A DNA stretch of 64,000 nt from Malonomonas sp. (GTDB taxonomy: Bacteria; Desulfobacterota; Desulfuromonadia; Desulfuromonadales; Geopsychrobacteraceae). The notes beneath the pieces were generated by a model that did not search any database, was not told the DNA's origin, and worked only from the letters and a program-made list of their open reading frames with translations. Positions 31,001 through 42,351 of the stretch are shown here, piece by piece. Positions within the stretch are counted from its first letter, which is position 1, and each line of letters opens with the position of its first letter. The position numbers and the translations under genes are program-made. The DNA lies in contig DATCYW010000017.1 of NCBI GenBank assembly GCA_036526255.1, positions 8,675 through 72,674 on the forward strand, in the 5' to 3' direction.

Positions 31001-31117
31001 GGATGATCCCTTTTACAGAAGCTGTATTCACACGCGAAAAGACGCCCGCCAAGATCGCATAAAATGCACATTTGTGCAATAATGCCGACCTCAGTTAAGG
31101 GAGGTCGAGAGCGTATT

Positions 31118-31420
31118 ATGGATGATTTTTCTATCGATGTGGATGATGCAACCATCCGTCGGGAGCGCGAAAAAGCCCGCGAGTTGCGCAAGCAAGGCTG
31201 GTGGCAGAGCCGAGTTTCCAGAGGAGTTTGTCATTATTGCGAACAGCAGGTGCCGGCGAAAGAGCTGACTCTGGATCACATCTTGCCGCTGGCGCGTGGC
31301 GGCCGCAGCACCAAGGGGAATTGTGTCCCGGCCTGCAAAGAGTGCAACAACCAGAAAAAAAATCTGCTGCCGCTGGAGTGGGAGGAGCACTTGCAGAGGC
31401 TGAAAGACCGGTCGCAGTAA
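31118..31420 (+). CDS. Stand-alone HNH endonuclease (100 aa)
   Basis: 'CHYC...TLDHILPLARGG...NCVPACKECNNQK'; GGAGG upstream of ATG 31118. Confidence 0.9.
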   Translation: MDDFSIDVDDATIRREREKARELRKQGWWQSRVSRGVCHYCEQQVPAKELTLDHILPLARGGRSTKGNCVPACKECNNQKKNLLPLEWEEHLQRLKDRSQ

Positions 31421-31428
31421 CAATCAAT

Positions 31429-31471
31429 AAACAACAAAGCGGCTGCCTGACTGGCAGCCGCTTTGTTGTTT
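31429..31471. terminator. Bidirectional terminator, perfect 19-bp stem
   Basis: AAACAACAAAGCGGCTGCC-TGACT-GGCAGCCGCTTTGTTGTTT between convergent genes. Confidence 0.88.
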
Positions 31472-31476
31472 CAGTC

Positions 31477-34400
31477 TCAGGCCGCCGGCATCTGCCGGTA
31501 ATTGCGGGCCTTGGTATAGAGCTCCTGATACTGCTCTGCTGATTTTGTCCAGCTGAAATCCTGGGTCATCCCGCGTTTGACCAGCGTCAGCCAGCGGCTG
31601 CGTTGCGGGTAGATAGCCAGGGCGCGGTCGATGGCTTCCAGCAACTGCGCCGGCTCGGATTTCTCAAAGATAAAGCCATACCCCTGGCGCGGGTGCGCAT
31701 CGACATCCAGCACCGTGTCAGCCAGTCCGCCGGTGTTGCGGACCACCGGCAGGGCGCCGTAGGTCAGGGAGATCATCTGCGTCAGTCCGCAGGGCTCATA
31801 CAGGCTGGGCACCAGCAGCAGATCGCTGGCGGCATAGACCCGGTGTGAGAGGTTTTCGTCAAAGCCGAGGTTGATCGATACCTTGCCGGGATATTTACCT
31901 GCCTGGGCGCCCCAGAACGCCATCGCGTCCTGATTGCCGGAGCCGAGCAGGACGAACTGGACGTCGCGGGTCAGCAGGTCGCCCCAGATCTTTTCCACCA
32001 GGTCGATCCCCTTTTGCCGGTCGAGCCGGCTGACCAGGGCGATAATCGGCACATCATGGCGCTGCTCCAGCCCCAACTCCTTCTGCAGTAACCGCTTGCA
32101 GGCGCGCTTGCCGTTCAGGTTTTCCGCGTTAAAGGCGGTCGGCAGCGCCGTATCCAGCGCCGGGTCCCAGCTGCGGCGGTCCAGCCCGTTGATGATGCCG
32201 TGCAGATCCTCTTTGCGCTGCTGCAGTATCCCCTCAAAGCCGTGCCCCTGTTCGGCGCTCTGAATTTCCCGGCAGTAGGTCGGCGACACCGTGTTGATCA
32301 CGTCGGCATAGTTGATCCCGCCTTTGAGCGCGGAAATGTTGCCGAAATACTCCATTCCTTGTGCGGAGGCCAGTGAACTGTCCATCCCCAGCAGACGCAG
32401 CGTGTCCAGCGGGAAGGTGCCCTGATAGCCGAGATTGTGGATGGTCAGCAGGGTGGCGATTGACGAATAAAAGGGGTTGTGGCGCAGCTCTGTTCTCAGC
32501 AGCGCGGGGATAAAGCTGGTCTGCCAGTCGTGAATATGGATGACGTCCGGCCGGAAATCGAGCCGCTTGATCATCTCCAGAACCGCGCGACAGAAAAAGC
32601 CGAACCGCAGACTGTTGTCGGCGTAATCCCCTTCAGCAGTGCCGTAGAGTGGATCGCGGTCGAAAAATTCCGGACAATCGATAAACCAGTAGGGGACGCC
32701 ATCGTGCGAGGCCTGCTTGAGGCTGCCCCGATAGGCGGTGCCGTCAAGGGTCACTTCAACACTTTTGCGCCCTTTGCGCAGACTGACGCCGCTGCGTTCG
32801 GCGGAGCGGTGGCCAGGGAGGATGACCCTTACATCGTGGCCTAACTGGCGCAACGCGCGCGGCAACGATCCGGCAACATCGGCAAGTCCGCCGGTCTTGG
32901 CAAAGGGGGTCGCTTCGGGGGTGACAAAGAGAATCTTCATTGAGGTAGTGCCTCCTGAGACTGAAGGCAGGGCCGGTTTATCCGGTTCCGCACCTTCGAG
33001 GCACTGCAAAAAAATATCCACCTGATAGTCGGATTTTGCTGCATAGGCAACGACAGTCCGACGGTTAATTAATAATTCATCTATAATTTGTGATAACTCA
33101 TCAAGATCAGCGGAATTGTCTTTATAAGAATGAAAGATTAAAAATTGAAAAAAGATGCCAAGAGAGCTGTTCAGGGCCTGCTGGTCGAACCAGTCTACTT
33201 CATTATAATAATTACATTTGAGGAGTTTTCGCCAGTCTCTCCGGTTAAATAACCGGTCCAATGGCGGGTACAGTTTCTCAGGGGTCAGATTTTCGCTGTT
33301 GATTAATCGGTCATCCAACCCTTGCAGCGCGGCAAAGTCGCCCTCCAGTGCATCCGAAAAATGGCTTCTGAAGGAGATCTGCAGCAGCTGTTCAGGGTCG
33401 TAACCTTTCTGCTGTAATTGCTCCAACTCTGTCATCGCCCGCTTGACGCAATCACGGAAAGATTTCTGCGCTGCCGTCGGTTCTTCAAGTTCAAGCAGCT
33501 GTTGGCAGACGGCGGCGAAAGGCTCAAGTGGTAGCGCGGCATGGTCGGTCCAGAGGTTGCGACGTCCGCTGCTGCCATGGCGTTGCCAGAGCTGTTGCCA
33601 GCGGCCATCCTGATCCCGGACTGCGGTGAAGTCGGTGAAGACGTGGTGACAGTAAGGGGGCAGGCTAAAGGTGCCGCCTGCGCGCATGGCGGCGGTCGGT
33701 TGCAGGTGCTGAAGCCCTGAAGCCAGATCGGTCAAGAGGATAAAGTCGCTCCGCTGGTCAATATTGCAGGCTGCGGCAACGCCCTGTTGCTTTGCATCGG
33801 CGCGGGGAGCCGGTTCAGCGACCCGGCCGTTGATCTGCAGTGGTGAATTATTACAGAGGATCAGAACCTGTTGTTGCGCCAGGCGATTGCTGTAGGCAAA
33901 GACGTTCTCTTCGACGCCGTAGTCGGAAACAAAATCATAGAGCTGGAAATCCGTAGCACCGCTGAACAGGGCCCGCTTACGCAGCAGCGGGAAGGTCTCA
34001 CGCTGGTGTCTGTTCAACAAGTGCTGATCGGCCTGTTCCTGCCAGCGCGGCGTCAGGTACTCCATGCCGTACTTCTCGCTAAAGCCTTCGATCTGGCCGT
34101 GACCGAACATCGGCAGCCCCGGCATGGTCGCCAGCATGGTCGCTACGCAAAAATATTTGTCATCTTTACCGAATTGCTCGATCGCCGGTTTTTCATCCGG
34201 ATTGCTCATGAAATTGACAAAGCGCTGTAGGATCGCCGGATCGAAAGAAAGAATATTCTTGATGGTCTGCCGGTACTTGGCGTTCTCCTCGCGCTTCAGC
34301 ATGTTCATAAAGGCGCTGTTGTAGACGCGGTGCATGCCGAGGGTGCGGACGAAGTAGCCCTCCATCAGCCAAAAGGCCTCAGCGACCAGCAGGGTGTCGG

Positions 34401-36120
34401 GGGCTTCCTGACGGACCCGGTCGACCAGTTCACGCCAGAATTCAAGTGGGAAGAACCGATTGAATTCTTCCTGCGGCAAGGCATGGTCGGCGCGCGATGG
34501 TACCCCGGCGCCACCGCCTGGCAGTGGGAACCAGAGCCGCTGGAAGTGCTTTTTCGCCAGCGTCATGGCCGCGTCGAAGCGGATGACCCGGAAGCGTTTT
34601 GCCACCGACAGGATCAGCTGGATCATGGTTTCGCGCACCTGCGGCAGCAGGTAGTTCAGCTGGGCGGTGTCGTTCCACGGCAGGTGGGTGCCGTCGTTGC
34701 CGTGATAGAGGTAGCGCACTTCGCCGCTGTGATGATTCAGGTAACGACAGGTGACCGCCGCTTCGCTGTGGTCGTAGTAGCCGTCCTCGATCTGTACCGT
34801 AAAATCGCCGTCCTCACTCAGGTCCGGGCCGGTGTAACGGTAGCCGGGGTAGGGGGGATGACTCAGCTGGATGAACCAGTCGGGGTGTTCTTTGACCCAG
34901 GCTGAATCGATGCCGGTGTGATTGGTGACCACGTCGCAGGCCAGATCGATGCCGCGTTGCCGGCAGCGCCCACGCAGGTTTTCCAGCGCCGCGTCGCCGC
35001 CCAGATCCTCGGCAATCTTATAGTCGTGGATGGCATAGGCCGAGGCCGCCACCTGCAGCTGTCCGCAGAGCTGTTTGATTTTCTGCGAGGCTCTGGAGCG
35101 TTGCCAGATGCCGATCAGCCAGAGACTGTTGAAGCCGTTACCGGCAATTTCATTCAGCTCCGCGTCGGGGATCTGGTCGAGGCGATAGATGTGCTGACCG
35201 TACTTGTCCGACAGCTGATGCAGCCAGACGTAAATGGTTTTGGCCAGCAGGACGGTGCGTGGCATCCAGTCGAGATCGGCGGTGAAGTTCGCAAACTCGG
35301 CATTCAGATAGTTGGCCGGATCGAGCGTGGTGGTCGCAACTTCGCCTGGATGGCCCGGGCGATGTCCTTCCTGTTCATAATGGCTGATTGAGTCGGAGAT
35401 CTGCGCCAGCAGCTCGGCAGGCAGTATGCCGCTCCAGGTCTTTTGCAGCAACAGCAGCTGCTCGCGCAGCGATTTGCTGCTTTGCAACGGCTTCAGCAAG
35501 CGCTCCAGCAAGGAATCAGGCAGATGGCCATAGCCATCATCAACTTCTGGCAGCGCCAGATCGATCTGCTGCAGCGCCAGATGATACTGGGTGGTCTGTT
35601 GCAGTTGCAGCTCTTCACGCTGAAAGAGCGGCGCGGCTGACTGCAGCGCCGGGTTCTGGCTCTGAACGCGCAGCAGAAACAGTTCGAGCAGCAGTTCATC
35701 CAGTTTGCCCAGCTGTTCAAGTTGCCGCAGCAGTTGACCGATGTCGCTCTGCCCCAGGCTGATCGGAACCGTGGGGAACAGTTTGAGGAATGCCGAAAAA
35801 AGAGTTTCCAGTTGTGGCAGTTCCAGCGAACTGTCGGTCAGCATCACGCGGTTGCGGAACGTTTTACAGTTGCGGCTGGCCAGATAGTGTCGGCCAATCT
35901 GCAGCAGCACCCGGTTCAGGGTTGCCCAGAGATCCAGTTCGCCGGCGGTCGGCGCCGCTGCCGATTGTTCGCGCAGGTGATCAGCGATCAGATGCAAGAA
36001 ATAGGTGCGCCCGGGCGGCGGCGATTGACGGAACTGCTCGGTCAGTTGCAATTGCTGCCAGAGGTTCTGGCCGCATTGGACGCCGAGCGGGTAGTGTGCT
36101 TGTCTTAAAAAATCATTCAT
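31477..36120 (-). CDS. glgA: Fusion of a GH13 alpha-amylase-family domain (aa 1-1060) and glycogen synthase GlgA (aa 1061-1547)
   Basis: GH13 'DVVTNHTG', 'RFDAAM', 'VAEAFW', 'NPDE'; GT5 'KTGGL', 'HDWQT', 'TIHNLGYQG', 'PSLYEPCGL'; no stop between them; internal AGGAGG and ATG at 32940. Confidence 0.88.
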   Translation of the reverse strand: MNDFLRQAHYPLGVQCGQNLWQQLQLTEQFRQSPPPGRTYFLHLIADHLREQSAAAPTAGELDLWATLNRVLLQIGRHYLASRNCKTFRNRVMLTDSSLELPQLETLFSAFLKLFPTVPISLGQSDIGQLLRQLEQLGKLDELLLELFLLRVQSQNPALQSAAPLFQREELQLQQTTQYHLALQQIDLALPEVDDGYGHLPDSLLERLLKPLQSSKSLREQLLLLQKTWSGILPAELLAQISDSISHYEQEGHRPGHPGEVATTTLDPANYLNAEFANFTADLDWMPRTVLLAKTIYVWLHQLSDKYGQHIYRLDQIPDAELNEIAGNGFNSLWLIGIWQRSRASQKIKQLCGQLQVAASAYAIHDYKIAEDLGGDAALENLRGRCRQRGIDLACDVVTNHTGIDSAWVKEHPDWFIQLSHPPYPGYRYTGPDLSEDGDFTVQIEDGYYDHSEAAVTCRYLNHHSGEVRYLYHGNDGTHLPWNDTAQLNYLLPQVRETMIQLILSVAKRFRVIRFDAAMTLAKKHFQRLWFPLPGGGAGVPSRADHALPQEEFNRFFPLEFWRELVDRVRQEAPDTLLVAEAFWLMEGYFVRTLGMHRVYNSAFMNMLKREENAKYRQTIKNILSFDPAILQRFVNFMSNPDEKPAIEQFGKDDKYFCVATMLATMPGLPMFGHGQIEGFSEKYGMEYLTPRWQEQADQHLLNRHQRETFPLLRKRALFSGATDFQLYDFVSDYGVEENVFAYSNRLAQQQVLILCNNSPLQINGRVAEPAPRADAKQQGVAAACNIDQRSDFILLTDLASGLQHLQPTAAMRAGGTFSLPPYCHHVFTDFTAVRDQDGRWQQLWQRHGSSGRRNLWTDHAALPLEPFAAVCQQLLELEEPTAAQKSFRDCVKRAMTELEQLQQKGYDPEQLLQISFRSHFSDALEGDFAALQGLDDRLINSENLTPEKLYPPLDRLFNRRDWRKLLKCNYYNEVDWFDQQALNSSLGIFFQFLIFHSYKDNSADLDELSQIIDELLINRRTVVAYAAKSDYQVDIFLQCLEGAEPDKPALPSVSGGTTSMKILFVTPEATPFAKTGGLADVAGSLPRALRQLGHDVRVILPGHRSAERSGVSLRKGRKSVEVTLDGTAYRGSLKQASHDGVPYWFIDCPEFFDRDPLYGTAEGDYADNSLRFGFFCRAVLEMIKRLDFRPDVIHIHDWQTSFIPALLRTELRHNPFYSSIATLLTIHNLGYQGTFPLDTLRLLGMDSSLASAQGMEYFGNISALKGGINYADVINTVSPTYCREIQSAEQGHGFEGILQQRKEDLHGIINGLDRRSWDPALDTALPTAFNAENLNGKRACKRLLQKELGLEQRHDVPIIALVSRLDRQKGIDLVEKIWGDLLTRDVQFVLLGSGNQDAMAFWGAQAGKYPGKVSINLGFDENLSHRVYAASDLLLVPSLYEPCGLTQMISLTYGALPVVRNTGGLADTVLDVDAHPRQGYGFIFEKSEPAQLLEAIDRALAIYPQRSRWLTLVKRGMTQDFSWTKSAEQYQELYTKARNYRQMPAA

Positions 36121-36124
36121 AGGT

Positions 36125-37165
36125 TCAGTAAGTCACCGTTGGGTCTGAATTACGCAGAAATTCTGCCGCTTCTTCAGGGGGAGTCGGATTGATCTGGAAG
36201 CCGGAGCCCCATTCGAAACCGGCCACGCGGGTCAGTTTCGGAGCGATTTCAATGTGCCAATGGTAATCGGCCGGCAAGGATGCCCAGTAGTCGGGGCGTC
36301 CCCAGCGCAGGTGCATCGGCGGCGCGCTGTGGAGGATAAAGGAGTAGGGCGGATCGCGCAGCACCGTACGCAGTCGCCGCAGGGTGTCACGCAGGGTATC
36401 GGCCAGCAGCAACAGTTGCTGATCGGTCTGCAGGGTGTAATCGTGGCTGTGGTCAAGTGGCGCAATCATCAGTTCAAATGGCACGCTTGACGCGAAAGGA
36501 GCGTAAACGAGAAAATTTCCGTCGTCACGCACGACCCGGTCTTTGCTGTTGCGCTCCTGACTGAGCAGGTCACAGATCAGACAGCGCTGCTTGCGCTCGA
36601 AGTGTTCGCGGCAGGCCGCCAGTTCGTTGGCAACCAGCGGCGGAATCAGTGGCACTGCGATCAGTTGCGAGTGTGAATGGGGGACGTTGGCCGCGGCCTC
36701 GACGCCGTAATTTTTAAACACAAACAGGTAACGGAAACGACTGTCATTACGCAGATCGAGCATCCGGGTGCGGAAGGCTTTCAGCACCTCGGCGATTTCC
36801 TCGGCTGTCAGATCGGCCATGCTGCGTTCGTGGTCGGGATGCTCAATAATCACCTCGTGGGCACCGATCCCGTTCATCCGGTCGTAAAGCCCCTCGGCCT
36901 GATTGTTCAGTTCCCCTTCAATCCGCAGTGCCGGGAACTTGTTCGGGATCACCCTGACCTGCCAGCCGGGTTGATTCGCTTTGCTGGTGTTCGGACGGTA
37001 GGCGTAGATCTCCGGTGGGGTTTTTGCTTCATTGCCGTTGCAGAACGGGCAGGAGGCCATTTCGACCTGGCTGCGCTGTTGGATAAAATCCTGCGGCCGC
37101 CGGCTGCGCCCCTGGGTGATGATGGTCCAGTTGTTCTTCAATGGATCCCAGCGTAATTCTGACAC
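36125..37165 (-). CDS. galT: GalT-family hexose-1-phosphate nucleotidylyltransferase
   Basis: 'ELRWDP', 'CPFC', 'PNKFPAL', 'GAHEVIIE', HxHxQ 'HSHSQ', 'GFEWGSG'; GTG start. Confidence 0.92.
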   Translation of the reverse strand: MSELRWDPLKNNWTIITQGRSRRPQDFIQQRSQVEMASCPFCNGNEAKTPPEIYAYRPNTSKANQPGWQVRVIPNKFPALRIEGELNNQAEGLYDRMNGIGAHEVIIEHPDHERSMADLTAEEIAEVLKAFRTRMLDLRNDSRFRYLFVFKNYGVEAAANVPHSHSQLIAVPLIPPLVANELAACREHFERKQRCLICDLLSQERNSKDRVVRDDGNFLVYAPFASSVPFELMIAPLDHSHDYTLQTDQQLLLLADTLRDTLRRLRTVLRDPPYSFILHSAPPMHLRWGRPDYWASLPADYHWHIEIAPKLTRVAGFEWGSGFQINPTPPEEAAEFLRNSDPTVTY

Positions 37166-37187
37166 GTCACTATCCTTTCTCTGTCGA

Positions 37188-39329
37188 TCAGACTGACCAG
37201 TTGTCTTCGTCTAGGGCGCAGCCACGGTAGGTAAAGGTGGCGCTCCCCTCGGTCGGCCAGCGACCGTTCTCTTTGTCGTTCTGCAGGGCGTGACAGCTAA
37301 GCCCGAGTTTTTCACCCGGGGCGATCAGCAGCGCCGCCAGCGGCACCGCCAGTTCCAGAATCTGATCACAGGCAGCGCGGCCGGTGCCGATCTTTACCCC
37401 CGCCTGATGCAGGTTGAGGGTCTGGGTCGCAAAGCAAAAGCGCAGTTGAAATAGCTGCTGCCCCGAAAGCCGTAGTTCAAAGCTGCCCTGTTCGCCACAC
37501 AGGTGTTTCAGCAGCTCAGCTTGATCCAGTCGGAAGTACAGCTGCTCTCGGTCGTAACCGTAGAACATCTGCTCCAGGCTTTCGCGGTTGGCGTGCATCG
37601 CACCACCGGCGGCCAGATTGATCCGGCCGGCAGCCAGCCATTCGAAATAATCACCGACCCGACCGTCGATCTGCGGCGTAAAGCAGGCGCTTGGCTCTAA
37701 ACTTTCGACGCTGGCTGCCGCGGGTTTGATCGATTGATGCAGCCGGGCCGGCGCGGGCAGCCCTTTCAGGTGGTAGAGGGCTTCAAGGTGCAGCCGGAAC
37801 AGGCGGTCGAAAATATCTGCCTGGGCGGTGACGTGTTCGTCGCCGAACCACCAGAACCAGTCACTCCCTTCGGCGCGCAACAGTTCGCGCACCAGTTCGC
37901 TTAAGGGCTCTGCCGGATTGTTTAGCGCCAGATCGATTTCGTTGCCGATAATTTCATCCCGGGTCTGTTGCAGCAGCTCCCAGGCGCGGTTCTCTTCCGG
38001 GTGGCCGATCCAGGTGGTGAAATCGGAACGGATCCAGGACCCCGCGGCCAGTCGCGTCAGCGGCAGCGGCGTGCTTGCAGCGATGGCATCCTGCACGGTG
38101 GCGAGTTCAAGTTGCGGATCTTTTTGCAGGTTCTGGTAGAGGTCGCGCAAAAACGGGTAGCCGTTTTCGGGATAGCGCTCCCAGCAGTTCTCGCCATCAA
38201 GGATGATCGCGACCGTGCCGCCGGGGGCCTGCGCGGCGATTGTCTGCAGTCGGGTGAGAACGTCGTCGGCCGCTTCGGCCGAATTCCAGCCGGCGTAGAG
38301 AAAGCCGATCCGGTCGGAGAGTTCGCGATCCCGGAACAGCAGCGGCAGCCCGTCATATTGATAGATATTGTAGAGCTTTCTGCGATCTTTAAGCCCTGTG
38401 TCCAGGCTGCGGGCCAGAATGTCCTCGTCGGTGGCCGCCCAGAGCGCGCCCTCTTCGCGCAACAGCCCGGCCGCCGCTTCGCTGACCGCACCTTCTGCCG
38501 GCCACATGCCGCGCGGACGCTGGCCGAGTATCCGGTTGGCGGTCTGCAATCCTTCACGAACCTGCAGGCGCCCGTCATGCGGATGTCTGAAATCGGCCGC
38601 CGGTAATGGCAAGCCCGGGCTTGGCAGCTGCGCCGCGCGCAGGTCGCAGAGCAGCGGCAGAATCGGATGGGCGTACGGGGTCACCGAAATTTCAATCTGT
38701 CCGGCCTGCTCGAGCTGTTTGTGTCGCGCGATGACGCGGGAGACTTCGGCATGGCAGATTTCAAGCAACTGCTGTTTCTGTGCTTCAGTGAAGTTCTCGC
38801 CCTGTTTCAGCAGCGCCGCCAGCACCGGCGTATTCTTGCGCAGATGATAGCCGGTCCAGGCGAGCAGAAACAGCACCTGCAGGTCGCGCAGGTCCTGTGG
38901 TTTGAATTTGTCCAGCTGTGGTGACGAGTCGCCGCCGCGCATCCGGAAGAGCTGATGGTAGCGGCGGTTCGGCAGGATCTGCGTCTCTTCGTTGACGGAG
39001 AAAAACTGCTCGATGATAAACTGCTGCTCGGCGGTTGCCAGCTGTTCAGGCGGCTGGGTCGCCAGGTCCAGCCAGCGGTCACGGTCGCTGCCGTCAGCGT
39101 AACGCTCCAGCTGTTCGAGCAGGGTCGGCACCAGGTTGACCGTTACCCGCGCGCCGGTTTCGGCGATGGTCTCCAGCATCTCGCCGTAGTCCTTCAACCC
39201 GTGCAGCCAGGTCCAGGGGAGCAGCGTCTGACCGCTGACCGGATCCCGATAGTCGGGCTGATGCATGTGCCAGAGGATGCAGACCTTCAGTGGTGCGTTC
39301 AGGCCGGATTTTGTAGCAGTTGCAACCAT
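37188..39329 (-). CDS. GH57 glycoside hydrolase (amylopullulanase/glucanotransferase/branching-type)
   Basis: 'WHMHQP', 'PYAHPILP', nucleophile 'WPAEG', acid/base 'LDGENCWE', 'AEGSDWFWW'. Confidence 0.92.
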   Translation of the reverse strand: MVATATKSGLNAPLKVCILWHMHQPDYRDPVSGQTLLPWTWLHGLKDYGEMLETIAETGARVTVNLVPTLLEQLERYADGSDRDRWLDLATQPPEQLATAEQQFIIEQFFSVNEETQILPNRRYHQLFRMRGGDSSPQLDKFKPQDLRDLQVLFLLAWTGYHLRKNTPVLAALLKQGENFTEAQKQQLLEICHAEVSRVIARHKQLEQAGQIEISVTPYAHPILPLLCDLRAAQLPSPGLPLPAADFRHPHDGRLQVREGLQTANRILGQRPRGMWPAEGAVSEAAAGLLREEGALWAATDEDILARSLDTGLKDRRKLYNIYQYDGLPLLFRDRELSDRIGFLYAGWNSAEAADDVLTRLQTIAAQAPGGTVAIILDGENCWERYPENGYPFLRDLYQNLQKDPQLELATVQDAIAASTPLPLTRLAAGSWIRSDFTTWIGHPEENRAWELLQQTRDEIIGNEIDLALNNPAEPLSELVRELLRAEGSDWFWWFGDEHVTAQADIFDRLFRLHLEALYHLKGLPAPARLHQSIKPAAASVESLEPSACFTPQIDGRVGDYFEWLAAGRINLAAGGAMHANRESLEQMFYGYDREQLYFRLDQAELLKHLCGEQGSFELRLSGQQLFQLRFCFATQTLNLHQAGVKIGTGRAACDQILELAVPLAALLIAPGEKLGLSCHALQNDKENGRWPTEGSATFTYRGCALDEDNWSV

Positions 39330-41818
39330 TGCTCTACCTTTTCGCGATATTCATTCAGCAGCGAATCGGCGCGCTCCGCTTCGACGGCTTCAGCCAGAAT
39401 GTGCACCAGCGGCCGATACGGATCGGGAACCACCAGCACCCAGTCATCACCCAGGTGCACCTTGACGCCGTCGATGAAGGTGGTCTGCAGGTCTGCGCTC
39501 GCCTCGTTCATCAGGCGCATGATGCCGCCTTTGCACTCCCAGCTGCAGGAGAGCTGGATCTTTCGATAGGGGCGCTGCGGGATCTGCGACCGCAGGTCGG
39601 TCATGGTCTCGTCCGCGCGGGCCAGCAGTTCCAGGGTTTTCGCCACCGCGAACAGGGCGTCGAAGTGCGGTTGAAATGCGGTGTAGGCAATCCGGCCCTC
39701 CAGGTCGCCGACCAGATGATTCTCTTTGTCTGTCGCGGCAACGCCCAGCGAGCGACCATCCCCTTTGGTGCGGACGACATTGATGCGCTTGCTGCGGACA
39801 ATCTCTTCCAGGGTGTGGGGCGCCGCGATCGGTACGGCAATCGAACCGCCCTGCGTGGTTTTGGCGATCAGCGTCGCAGAGAGAGTCAAGACTTCGATAT
39901 CGCTAAAAATTTTACCGCTGCCGTCGACGAAAATAGAGCGTTCACCAGAAGGTCCAAGCCAGAAGCCCGCAGTCGCATTCAGGGCGGTGACGATCTTGCC
40001 CATCCGTTTCAGGGCGTCCGTCTGTTCTTCGGCCAGCGGCGGGATGTGGTTTTCATCAATCTGTGCGTTCAGTTCGATAACCTCGCAACCGAGACGGTTG
40101 AGCAGACGCGGCAGCAGGTCGGCGGCGGGGGAGTGGTTGAGGTCGATCACCACCCGCGGCTTGGCTTTGCTCAGCACCTCGCGATCGAGGGCGCGGAGGA
40201 AGCCATCCTGATAGTATTCGTAGAGATTCGGTAGTTCGGAGATCGAGCCCGGCTCACTGTAGTGAACGCGGCGGAAGTTTTCTTTGTAGTAGATCCGCTC
40301 GATCGCTTTGGCCGCGGCTGATGAGAGTTCCAGCCCCTGCTCATCAAAAAAGACGATTTCTGTCACCGATGAATCACGTGCCGACTGCCGAAAATGCACC
40401 CCGCCGATTTCTCCGAAAGTGGTCAGTTTGTAACGCAGCACCGGCAAAGGGACGCGCTTGACATCGCGGGCGTTGATTCCTGCCGATAGCAGGCCGCCGA
40501 CGAAGGCGCGTTTCAGCATGCGCGAGGAGCGCAGCGCATCGCGACCGATGAGGATAAAGCTGTCCTTCGGCAGTGTCGAGCCGTAGGCCGCGCCGAGTTT
40601 TGCGGCAAATTCAGGAGTCAGTTCGATGTTGGTCAGTCCCTTGACCACTGCCCCTTCGAACAGGCTGCGGCGCCAGGTTTCTCCCCAGATCATGTTGCTG
40701 GTGACGATGGCGCTGTTTTCGATGATTTTGCTCGGCCATATTTTGACGTCGGCGTTGATCGTCGCATCAGCACCGACATTTGAACCATCGCCGACCACCA
40801 CACCCGCCTTGATGGTGGCGCCGGTGCCGATTCGCACGTTCTGACCGAGGACCGCATCAGTGATCTTGGCGTTGGCCTTGACGTATACGTTGTCCCAGAG
40901 GACGGTATTTTCGAGTTGGGCACCCTCTTCGATAACGCAGTTGCGGCCGATGATGCAGTTTTTCAGCTTTGGTGCGCCGATCAGGCGGGTGTTGTCACCC
41001 AGGATGACCGTGCCTTCGAGCATCGCCAGGCTGTCCGGGTTGGCGGTCGCTTCAGCGCCCAGGTACAGCCCTTTCTGCCCGCTCAGCGGCCGCTCTTCGA
41101 TATTGACGCTGGCCTTGCCGCTGAGGATGTCCTTGCTGGTTTCGAGGTAGGCGTCGGTGTTGCCGATATCCTGCCAGTAGCCTTTCAAGGTACAGCCGTA
41201 GAGCGGGGCCTTGCGCTCCAGCATCAGGGGAAAAACATCCTTTGACCAGTCGCGGTTTTCCCCCTCGGGGATCAGGTCCAGCACTTCCGGTTCGAGAATG
41301 TAGATGCCGGTGTTGATGGTGTCGGAGAAAACTTCACCCCAATCCGGTTTTTCCAGAAACTTGGTGATCTCACCTTCGGGATTGGTGATGACTACCCCGA
41401 ACTGCAGCGGGTCGGGCACCGGCGTTAGAGTCAGGGTCGCCTGGGCCTGCTTCTCTTTATGGAAGGCGATCGCCGCGCCCAGGTCGAAATCGGTCAGCAG
41501 ATCGCCGCTGATGATCATGAAGCGCTCATCCAGATGACGCGCCGCCGCCTTGACCGCGCCCGCGGTACCCAGGTCTTCGAGGGGGGTGACGTAGGTGATC
41601 TCAACGCCGTATTCGCTGCCGTCGCCGAAGAATTTCTTGATTGTTTCCGGCTGAAAATAGAGCAGGATCACCAGCTCGGTGATGCCGTGCTTTTTCAGCA
41701 GATCGACAATGTGCAGCATGATCGGGCGATTGCAGAGGGAAACCATCGGCTTGGGTACGTTGATCGAGAGCGGATGCAGGCGGGTGCCGAAGCCTCCGGC
41801 CATGATGACTGCTTTCAT
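39299..41818 (-). CDS. Sugar-1-phosphate nucleotidyltransferase + LbH + degenerate phosphomutase fusion (MPG/PMM type)
   Basis: 'MAGGFGTRL', 'KPMV', 'GTAG', 'FLEKP', 'WQDIG'; hexapeptide repeats; PMM fold lacking SHN and DxDxD motifs. Confidence 0.88.
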   Translation of the reverse strand: MKAVIMAGGFGTRLHPLSINVPKPMVSLCNRPIMLHIVDLLKKHGITELVILLYFQPETIKKFFGDGSEYGVEITYVTPLEDLGTAGAVKAAARHLDERFMIISGDLLTDFDLGAAIAFHKEKQAQATLTLTPVPDPLQFGVVITNPEGEITKFLEKPDWGEVFSDTINTGIYILEPEVLDLIPEGENRDWSKDVFPLMLERKAPLYGCTLKGYWQDIGNTDAYLETSKDILSGKASVNIEERPLSGQKGLYLGAEATANPDSLAMLEGTVILGDNTRLIGAPKLKNCIIGRNCVIEEGAQLENTVLWDNVYVKANAKITDAVLGQNVRIGTGATIKAGVVVGDGSNVGADATINADVKIWPSKIIENSAIVTSNMIWGETWRRSLFEGAVVKGLTNIELTPEFAAKLGAAYGSTLPKDSFILIGRDALRSSRMLKRAFVGGLLSAGINARDVKRVPLPVLRYKLTTFGEIGGVHFRQSARDSSVTEIVFFDEQGLELSSAAAKAIERIYYKENFRRVHYSEPGSISELPNLYEYYQDGFLRALDREVLSKAKPRVVIDLNHSPAADLLPRLLNRLGCEVIELNAQIDENHIPPLAEEQTDALKRMGKIVTALNATAGFWLGPSGERSIFVDGSGKIFSDIEVLTLSATLIAKTTQGGSIAVPIAAPHTLEEIVRSKRINVVRTKGDGRSLGVAATDKENHLVGDLEGRIAYTAFQPHFDALFAVAKTLELLARADETMTDLRSQIPQRPYRKIQLSCSWECKGGIMRLMNEASADLQTTFIDGVKVHLGDDWVLVVPDPYRPLVHILAEAVEAERADSLLNEYREKVEQWLQLLQNPA

Positions 41819-41916
41819 TAAGACTCCTTTTTTGATAACAGGTCAGGATTTATCAAGAGATTAAACACCAGAACGCTGGTTAGTTGTCAGAAAATGTCGT
41901 GAAAAAGCGGGTTTGG

Positions 41917-42273
41917 CTACTTGCGTTTGAGCAGGCGTCTGACTTCCGATTTCAGTTCTCCCAGGTCGGAACTTTTGACGATGTAGGCGTCGGCCAGCCA
42001 TGAAGAGAAATCATCCTTGTAGCAATTGTAGGCACTACAGAGAATCACCGGCAGACCGGAGCGCTCTTTGACGATGGTTTGCAGCATATCGAGACCGCTC
42101 TCCTGCTTGATCTGGATGTCAAGAACGACCAGGTCGATCTGCTGACTGGCGAGGATCTCGGCGGCGGCGGCGCAGTTTCCGGCGCTAACCACTTGATAAC
42201 CTTCATCTTCCAGTTCGGCAGTGTAGAGCAATCTCAAGCCGGGTTCATCATCGACCACCAGGATTGTCGCCAT
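41917..42273 (-). CDS. Single-domain response regulator heading the alpha-glucan operon
   Basis: 'ILVVDDE', 'LVVLDIQI', 'CSA', 'YIVKS'; AAGGAG RBS before ATG 42273. Confidence 0.92.
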   Translation of the reverse strand: MATILVVDDEPGLRLLYTAELEDEGYQVVSAGNCAAAAEILASQQIDLVVLDIQIKQESGLDMLQTIVKERSGLPVILCSAYNCYKDDFSSWLADAYIVKSSDLGELKSEVRRLLKRK

Positions 42274-42323: not shown

Positions 42324-42351
42324 ATTGTAACAGTTTGGGCACAGATGGCAA
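42324..42351 (-). promoter_or_regulatory. Extended -10 sigma70-type promoter for the response regulator/alpha-glucan operon
   Basis: Minus strand TTGCCA-16 nt-TACAAT with a TG extension. Confidence 0.6.

Follow-up and report, generated by a model that had tools for sequence, protein, structure and literature searches.

A glycogen operon without glgC in Malonomonas sp.: a nucleotidyltransferase with a predicted pseudo-mutase domain as candidate for the GlgC step

How does a bacterium make the sugar donor for glycogen when it lacks GlgC, which textbooks give as the enzyme of the committed, regulated step in making bacterial glycogen? The question is raised by a five-gene alpha-glucan operon of Malonomonas sp., found in a stretch of 64,000 nucleotides (contig DATCYW010000017.1, positions 8,675 to 72,674 of the forward strand; hereafter the window), which encodes the glycogen synthase GlgA and no GlgC. 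The original prediction for this locus was that two of its other enzymes, an NTP-transferase/PMM fusion and a GalT-like protein, supply or interconvert the donor. We consider it fairly probable that the operon, which serves to make alpha-glucan (glycogen), is ancestral to the Desulfuromonadales and has been inherited vertically, and that in it a nucleotidyltransferase (NT) of the CugP or GDP-mannose pyrophosphorylase (GMPP) type, carrying a phosphohexomutase domain that we predict to be dead, takes the GlgC step. The functional statements made here were inferred from the sequences, from predicted structures and from how the genes are distributed.

An operon and a genome without GlgC

The operon lies on the minus strand and spans about 42350 to 31429 of the window. 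Its genes, with the domains of the two fusion proteins, are as follows.

41917..42273, minus strand: receiver-only response regulator, 118 amino acids (aa) from the ATG at 42273 (Pfam Response_reg, 73 bits)
39299-41818, minus strand: fusion of 839 aa with NTP_transferase, left-handed beta-helix (LbH) and PGM_PMM I/II domains (NT+LbH+PGM/PMM-like; the NT fusion)
40694..41818, minus strand: NT domain plus LbH, aa 1-375 of the 839-aa protein (PF00483, 185 bits)
39302..40681, minus strand: predicted pseudo-phosphohexomutase domain, aa 380-839 of the 839-aa protein
37188..39329, minus strand: GH57 enzyme of the Aquifex AaApu (amylopullulanase) type, 713 aa, with a C-terminal extension of about 200 aa
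36125..37165, minus strand: GalT-like HIT nucleotidyltransferase, 346 aa, closest to Arabidopsis At5g18200
31477-36120, minus strand: GH13-GlgA fusion, 1547 aa
32971..36120, minus strand: GH13L, a large divergent GH13 module, aa 1-1050 of the 1547-aa protein (PF00128, 47 bits)
31480..32940, minus strand: GT5 glycogen synthase GlgA module, aa 1061-1547 (TIGR02095, 565 bits, cut-off 328; NF001899, 490 bits, cut-off 459)

Domain matches and short spacings bear out the tightly packed five-gene unit that had been described: from the regulator to GH13-GlgA, the first two genes are 98 nt apart, the second and third overlap by 31 nt, and the last two junctions are gaps of 22 and 4 nt. The coordinates first given to it, 36125-42273, hold for four of the genes and leave out the GH13-GlgA gene, although it is part of the unit.

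The absence of glgC, claimed for the operon, extends to the genome. In the assembly (3.34 Mb, 109 contigs, 97% complete) no protein scored above the GlgC cut-off, the best match to TIGR02091 being the NT fusion itself at 127 bits against 424.9, and the search for glgC and glgB elsewhere in the genome, proposed with the original prediction, found neither above cut-off; for the GH13 GlgB model TIGR01515 the top match reached 18.5 bits. GalU was likewise not found above cut-off in the genome, and GlgC is also absent from the sister genome G094 and from G074, each 99% complete. GlgA is present in a single copy. Dedicated enzymes are encoded for GDP-mannose, dTDP-glucose and UDP-GlcNAc, and the genome holds RfbA, GlmU, GlmM, GlgP, a second alpha-glucan phosphorylase, MalQ and a PGM-like mutase with intact motifs.

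Two further observations concern the sugar nucleotidyltransferases of this genome. An orphan sugar-1-phosphate nucleotidyltransferase of 331 aa with a beta-helix tail (contig C9:46106-47101; L048:1498-2493), which reaches no NCBIfam cut-off, adjoins a radical-SAM/TRAM gene and a DUF445 gene and is a second, weaker candidate source of NDP-glucose. GlmU is encoded by two full-length genes (C5:6828-8210 and C36:92-1483; scoring 729 and 693 bits on one NCBIfam model), with one copy on a 2.4-kb contig; the duplication may be real, or the assembly may mix strains.

On a different reading, the NT fusion would be a GDP-mannose enzyme with no part in glycogen synthesis, and the donor would come from a glgC in the unassembled part of the genome. 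The 109 contigs speak for such a gap, and the top NCBIfam match of the NT half is the mannose-1-phosphate guanylyltransferase model, at 271 bits, under its cut-off of 440. We regard this reading as very improbable, given the completeness of this genome and of the two others without glgC, the dedicated ManC (739 bits, above cut-off) that adjoins ManB on contig 16, and the near confinement of the fusion to GlgA-bearing genomes, where it lies beside glgA. Much the same scenario, a GDP-mannose nucleotidyltransferase with a glgC elsewhere, had been named at the outset as the one that would overturn the original prediction, and it fails on the separate ManC and ManB and on the lack of glgC elsewhere.

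The nucleotidyltransferase fusion

Evidence that the NT fusion stands in for GlgC comes from its distribution. Among 121 genomes of the order Desulfuromonadales, searched for GlgA, GlgC, the NT fusion, the GalT-like enzyme, GlgB and GalU, GlgA was found in 99: 46 of these have the NT fusion only, 18 GlgC only, 32 both and 3 neither. The fusion, GlgC or both are thus carried by 96 of the 99 GlgA-bearing genomes, and the three with neither are 73%, 78% and 91% complete, the last in 520 contigs. Of the 22 genomes without GlgA, 2 had the fusion, both times at a contig end. GlgA and the fusion, with neither GlgC nor the GalT-like enzyme, make up the set of 14 genomes, 11 of which are at least 92% complete.

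Gene order at the locus adds to this pattern. The flanks are constant, with trkA/trkH on one side and radical-SAM and UvrD genes on the other, and the cluster has an invariant core of the NT fusion and GlgA, usually with GH13L too, to which GH57 and GalT form an optional module. The clearest case is in the window's own family: two sister genera (g3 and g5) have at the same locus the order GH57-GalT-GH13L-GlgA, in which the regulator and the NT fusion have been lost together and are cleanly missing, and they encode a true GlgC elsewhere. The fusion without GlgC is found in the genome studied here and G094 (both genus g1) and in G074, and G061 carries the two together. Outside the order, the NT fusion adjoins GlgA at two loci (L075 and L083), and other phyla show regulator-GlgC-GlgA-GalT-GH57 and similar orders, which argues that GlgC and the NT fusion hold equivalent slots.

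Because the fusion tracks GlgA, is reciprocal with GlgC across the order, and was swapped for GlgC in sister genera, we regard it as the likely GlgC substitute; a reciprocal pattern of this kind is what non-orthologous displacement predicts. The part of the original prediction that named the nucleotidyltransferase as supplier of the GlgA donor is thus supported, as that of the best candidate. ADP-glucose is the likelier product, since in the sister genera it is GlgC that serves the GlgA module, which is about 60-65% identical to the one here.

The NT half has the motifs of an active enzyme of its fold: the glycine-rich loop GGxGTRLxPL, the lysine of PKP, and the GD, EKP and D-x-G motifs are all present and are invariant in 21 homologues. 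The closest solved structure to the NT+LbH half is 8x7s, the tlr0611 protein of Thermosynechococcus (204 bits, E 2.6e-59), deposited as a UTP-glucose-1-phosphate uridylyltransferase and, judging from the depositor's name and organism, presumably a CugP orthologue; GDP-mannose pyrophosphorylases rank after it, at 154-177 bits. The protein described here shares with the CugP type this best structural match and an identical domain order, and differs from it by an added 460-aa pseudo-mutase domain and by its place in a glgA operon.

As predicted from its residues, the mutase half is a pseudoenzyme, catalytically dead, with its loops lost and its fold kept. The four-domain phosphohexomutase fold is retained (AlphaFold2 pLDDT 82; Foldseek TM-score 0.89 to the Pyrococcus horikoshii PMM/PGM 1wqa), and likeness to the archaeal PMM/PGM enzymes (1wqa and the T. 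kodakarensis 9du5) amounts to 27-28% identity. Unlike those enzymes, the mutase half has lost all four of its catalytic loops (phosphoserine, Mg, sugar and phosphate). The serine loop reads FRQSARD instead of T/S-A-S-H-N-P, with F or C at the serine position in relatives; the Mg loop reads GPSGER instead of D-G-D-x-D-R, the sugar loop GDLEGR instead of G-E-x-S-G-H, and the phosphate loop VPDPYRP instead of R-x-S-G-T-E-P. All four are degenerate in each of 11 fusions, namely this one and 10 homologues from Desulfuromonadales, Aquificota and WOR lineages, and GlmM, ManB and the PGM-like enzyme, the three true mutases examined from this genome, retain the loop motifs. The mean pairwise identity of 52% suggests that the mutase half is under selection, and the domain is probably regulatory or structural. 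The description of this protein as an NTP-transferase/PMM fusion therefore stands for its domains and fold, the PMM-like half being without its catalytic motifs, and we rejected a true two-step mutase/transferase because the mutase half appears catalytically dead.

The gene that precedes the fusion encodes a CheY-like protein in which the acidic pocket (VVDDE), the acceptor aspartate (VVLDI), the serine (ILCSA) and the lysine (IVKSS) of a receiver are seen; the protein ends after the receiver, and an output domain is absent. The full open reading frame (ORF) is 205 aa long and runs into the divergent radical-SAM gene, and relatives align only from its residues 75-91. Separately, a homologous receiver-only regulator (40-47% identity) lies directly upstream of a true glgC at four loci of other phyla (L077, L084, L085 and L101). 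Proteins of this kind may be widespread regulators of the sugar-activation step in glycogen synthesis.

In the explanation that we favour, a stand-alone phosphoglucomutase encoded elsewhere in the genome would provide glucose-1-phosphate, the NT domain would turn this into an NDP-glucose, for which ADP-glucose is the most likely and UDP-glucose a possible identity, and the GlgA module would elongate alpha-1,4 chains. The fused GH13L would act on the growing chain, probably by branching or transferring, a role proposed because GlgB is absent, and the AaApu-like GH57 would trim or debranch. The pseudo-mutase domain and the receiver-only regulator would probably control the NT step.

Several points weigh against this explanation. 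The nucleotide and sugar specificity of the NT domain is unreadable from sequence, 204 bits to a UDP-glucose enzyme standing against 177 bits to a GDP-mannose-type enzyme. The 32 genomes that keep both GlgC and the NT fusion do so with one GlgA, and the two may not be fully redundant. The genomes compared are related and are therefore non-independent samples. The AlphaFold2 model of GH13L is moderate (pLDDT 73) and poor around the active site, and the role and working direction assigned below to the GalT-like enzyme are guesses. Finally, a GalU-type UDP-glucose pyrophosphorylase was found above cut-off in just 3 of the 121 genomes, and the NT fusion could be a general source of UDP-glucose whose link to GlgA is indirect. 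GalU itself was rejected as an alternative donor source, being absent here and from 118 of the 121 genomes.

This last point leads to a reading that we judge possible, if rather doubtful: that the fusion is a CugP-like general UDP-glucose pyrophosphorylase, making up for the missing GalU, and that GlgA uses UDP-glucose as it does in Pseudomonas aeruginosa. The uridylyltransferase name of the closest structure, which is cyanobacterial, agrees with it, as does the precedent of a GT5 GlgA in a glgC-less bacterium that takes its donor, UDP-glucose, from GalU (PMC8084333). P. aeruginosa and the genome studied here both have a GT5 GlgA without glgC; here, by contrast, GalU is also absent, and a dedicated NT fusion lies within the operon. 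The GH13L-GlgA of the sister genera, similar in its GlgA module, is nevertheless served by a true GlgC, which suggests ADP-glucose as donor, a gene like that of ADP-glucose phosphorylase lies in the same operon, and 41 genomes lack both the NT fusion and GalU, which argues that the fusion is not a universal housekeeping enzyme.

The GalT-like enzyme

The closest characterised relative of the GalT-like enzyme is At5g18200 of Arabidopsis (PDB 1z84 and 2h39), a reversible ADP-glucose phosphorylase from the class I GalT branch of the HIT superfamily. The alignment to 1z84 is full-length, with an E-value of 4.2e-64 and 220 bits, as compared with 114 bits to 6k5z and 67 bits to the GalT of E. coli. 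Its H163-S-H165-S-Q167, with the nucleophilic second histidine, aligns to the HSHSQ of the plant enzyme, and H163 and H165 are invariant in 10 homologues; the zinc ligands C39-P-F-C42 and H103 also align with those of the plant enzyme and are at least 90% conserved. Unlike its plant relative, the bacterial gene lies within glycogen operons, with occasional fusion to GlgA or GH57, and most members of the family carry HPHSQ in place of HSHSQ.

The family is large, with 2139 clusters at E up to 1e-30. Among 80 loci from many phyla, at about 50% identity, an alpha-glucan gene is near the GalT-like gene at 50, and GlgA lies within 300 bp of it at 24. Fusion proteins also occur, both of GH57 with the GalT-like enzyme (P0243 and P0266, of 875 and 858 aa) and of GlgA with it (P0313, 814 aa). 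True GlgC, above the NCBIfam cut-offs, shares an operon with the GalT-like gene in several phyla, as in the orders regulator-GlgC-GlgA-GalT-GH57 and regulator-GlgC-GalT-GlgA-GH57-GlgB.

About 30 of the 80 loci have the GalT-like gene without an alpha-glucan neighbour; its recurrent neighbours there are genes for a class-III aminotransferase, for CysS and for a UPF0102 protein. These loci (L082, L091, L098-L104, L108, L110, L116, L120, L121, L128, L130, L135 and others) are mostly from Acidobacteriota, and the family may have a second role.

We rejected the idea that the GalT-like enzyme and GlgC are reciprocal alternatives, since about 31 genomes of the order have both and the two share one operon in other phyla. 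The GlgC-containing operons, together with the lack of the GalT-like enzyme from the 14 GlgA-bearing genomes that also lack GlgC, suggest instead an accessory partner of GlgA, conserved with either pyrophosphorylase, and not a substitute for GlgC. On the same two grounds the original prediction is not supported where it cast GalT as supplier or interconverter of the donor. With low confidence, we propose that the enzyme is a phosphate-dependent drain or buffer of ADP-glucose and not its primary source: it would most likely act as an ADP-glucose:phosphate adenylyltransferase, coupling the pools of ADP-glucose and glucose-1-phosphate beside GlgA.

The reversibility of its closest characterised relative, its position within 300 bp of GlgA at 24 of 80 loci in many phyla, and the existence of GlgA-GalT and GH57-GalT fusion proteins would also suit an enzyme run backwards, from ADP and glucose-1-phosphate to ADP-glucose and phosphate, as a real and ATP-saving donor source for GlgA. 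We think this unlikely. The co-operonic GlgC of several phyla and the 14 genomes above, most of them nearly complete, again speak against it, and no near-complete, well-assembled genome of the sample is left with the GalT-like enzyme as sole candidate; the one genome that is, G116, has 520 contigs and a completeness of 91%. Coupled to GlgA, the backward reaction would moreover turn glucose-1-phosphate into glucan and phosphate, which is glycogen phosphorylase in reverse. Glycogen phosphorylase runs toward breakdown in cells, where phosphate far exceeds glucose-1-phosphate, and at such phosphate levels the backward route would therefore be unfavourable.

Other parts of the operon and its place in glycogen metabolism

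The GH57 enzyme is closest to AaApu of Aquifex (9jlq/8zyi; E 2e-85), with which it shares the five conserved regions and the Glu/Asp dyad. The catalytic Glu of region 3 and Asp of region 4 are present, and the stretches HMHQP, WPAEGA, DGENCW and AEGSDW align to AaApu, the conserved-region motifs being those defined in PMC12106739. It differs from AaApu (8zyi) by about 200 extra C-terminal residues and by its intracellular operon context. It is the one true GH57 of the genome, a second GH57 match being a polysaccharide deacetylase, and at 31 bits against a cut-off of 920 for the Thermus branching-enzyme model no GH57 branching enzyme was found. GH13L and a TreS-like enzyme are the sole GH13 proteins of the genome, which therefore has no GlgX, and this makes the GH57 a candidate debranching or trimming enzyme; a trimming role is plausible and is predicted here. 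The TreS-like protein (650 aa, contig C43:121124-123076), the N-terminal half of which is TreS-like at 240 bits, below cut-off, may link glycogen to trehalose or maltose.

Many relatives have GH13L as a separate protein of 1100-1180 aa, and in several lineages it is fused to GlgA. Of the motifs in GH13 regions I-IV, which in that family hold the Asp/Glu/Asp triad and two His, DVVxNH, RFDAA and AEAFW occur here in invariant form; region IV has NPD and not NHD, and region II carries an insertion. No known subfamily could be assigned, sequence matches in the PDB being short and weak and Foldseek, run on the moderate model, returning generic GH13 folds. GlgB is above cut-off in just 21 of the 121 genomes, mostly those with classical glgC-glgB-glgA clusters, and for this reason GH13L is a candidate brancher, with branching or transfer as its predicted and plausible role.

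Two elements border the operon, in which the GC content is uniform over the region.

42324..42351, minus strand: sigma-70-like promoter upstream of the response-regulator gene (TTGCCA-16-TACAAT, 10 of 12 matches, extended TG), a consensus match only
31429..31471, minus strand: intrinsic-terminator-like hairpin at the operon end, with a 19-bp stem and 10 GC pairs, 6 nt past the stop codon

An Rfam scan of the operon for riboswitch or leader RNAs gave no match at E up to 0.1, and no acidic mini-ORF follows glgA here, where the terminator and a plus-strand HNH gene are found instead. This HNH endonuclease ORF (31064-31420, plus strand, 118 aa; Pfam HNH_5, 54 bits) stands by itself on the strand opposite to the operon, in the interval from there to trkA, and stops just short of the terminator hairpin.

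With the classical GlgC-GlgA-GlgB pathway (glgBXCAP of E. coli), the Malonomonas operon shares a central GT5 GlgA of the ADP-glucose type and, upstream of it, an enzyme of NDP-sugar pyrophosphorylase fold with a left-handed beta-helix; a further likeness is that the genome has glycogen phosphorylase and MalQ, at other loci. It differs in lacking GlgC, GlgB and GlgX and in having a CugP/GMPP-type pyrophosphorylase with an apparently dead mutase domain; GlgA is fused to a divergent GH13 of 1050 aa, and the operon gains a GH57 and a GalT-like HIT enzyme. We found no paper that ties the GalT-like enzyme or the NT-mutase fusion to bacterial glycogen operons, and those parts of a 2024 Chem Rev review that were reached by term searches had nothing on either protein; nor did we find a publication describing a variant of the glycogen pathway with an NT-pseudo-mutase in the place of GlgC or with a GalT-like partner.

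A further-reaching version of our explanation, which we offer only tentatively, is that a new class of NDP-glucose pyrophosphorylase replaces GlgC in Geobacter and its relatives, set by a pseudo-mutase sensor and a phosphorylatable receiver, and that a GlgA-bound ADP-glucose phosphorylase recycles ADP on the spot. If this were true, chains could be extended from, or returned to, glucose-1-phosphate without ATP cost, depending on the phosphate level.

In the sample of the order, environmentally important metal and sulfur reducers are often without GlgC (about 45 of the 99 GlgA-bearing genomes) and yet keep a conserved GlgA operon, and in the same order GlgB is missing from about 100, and GalU from 118, of the 121 genomes. 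If the NT-pseudo-mutase protein is the donor source, metabolic reconstructions in which these organisms count as lacking glycogen synthesis, or as having an incomplete route to it, would be wrong, and database labels that call the protein bifunctional would be misleading. The GalT-like partner of GlgA, found in many phyla without an assigned role, offers a concrete and cheap target for enzymology.

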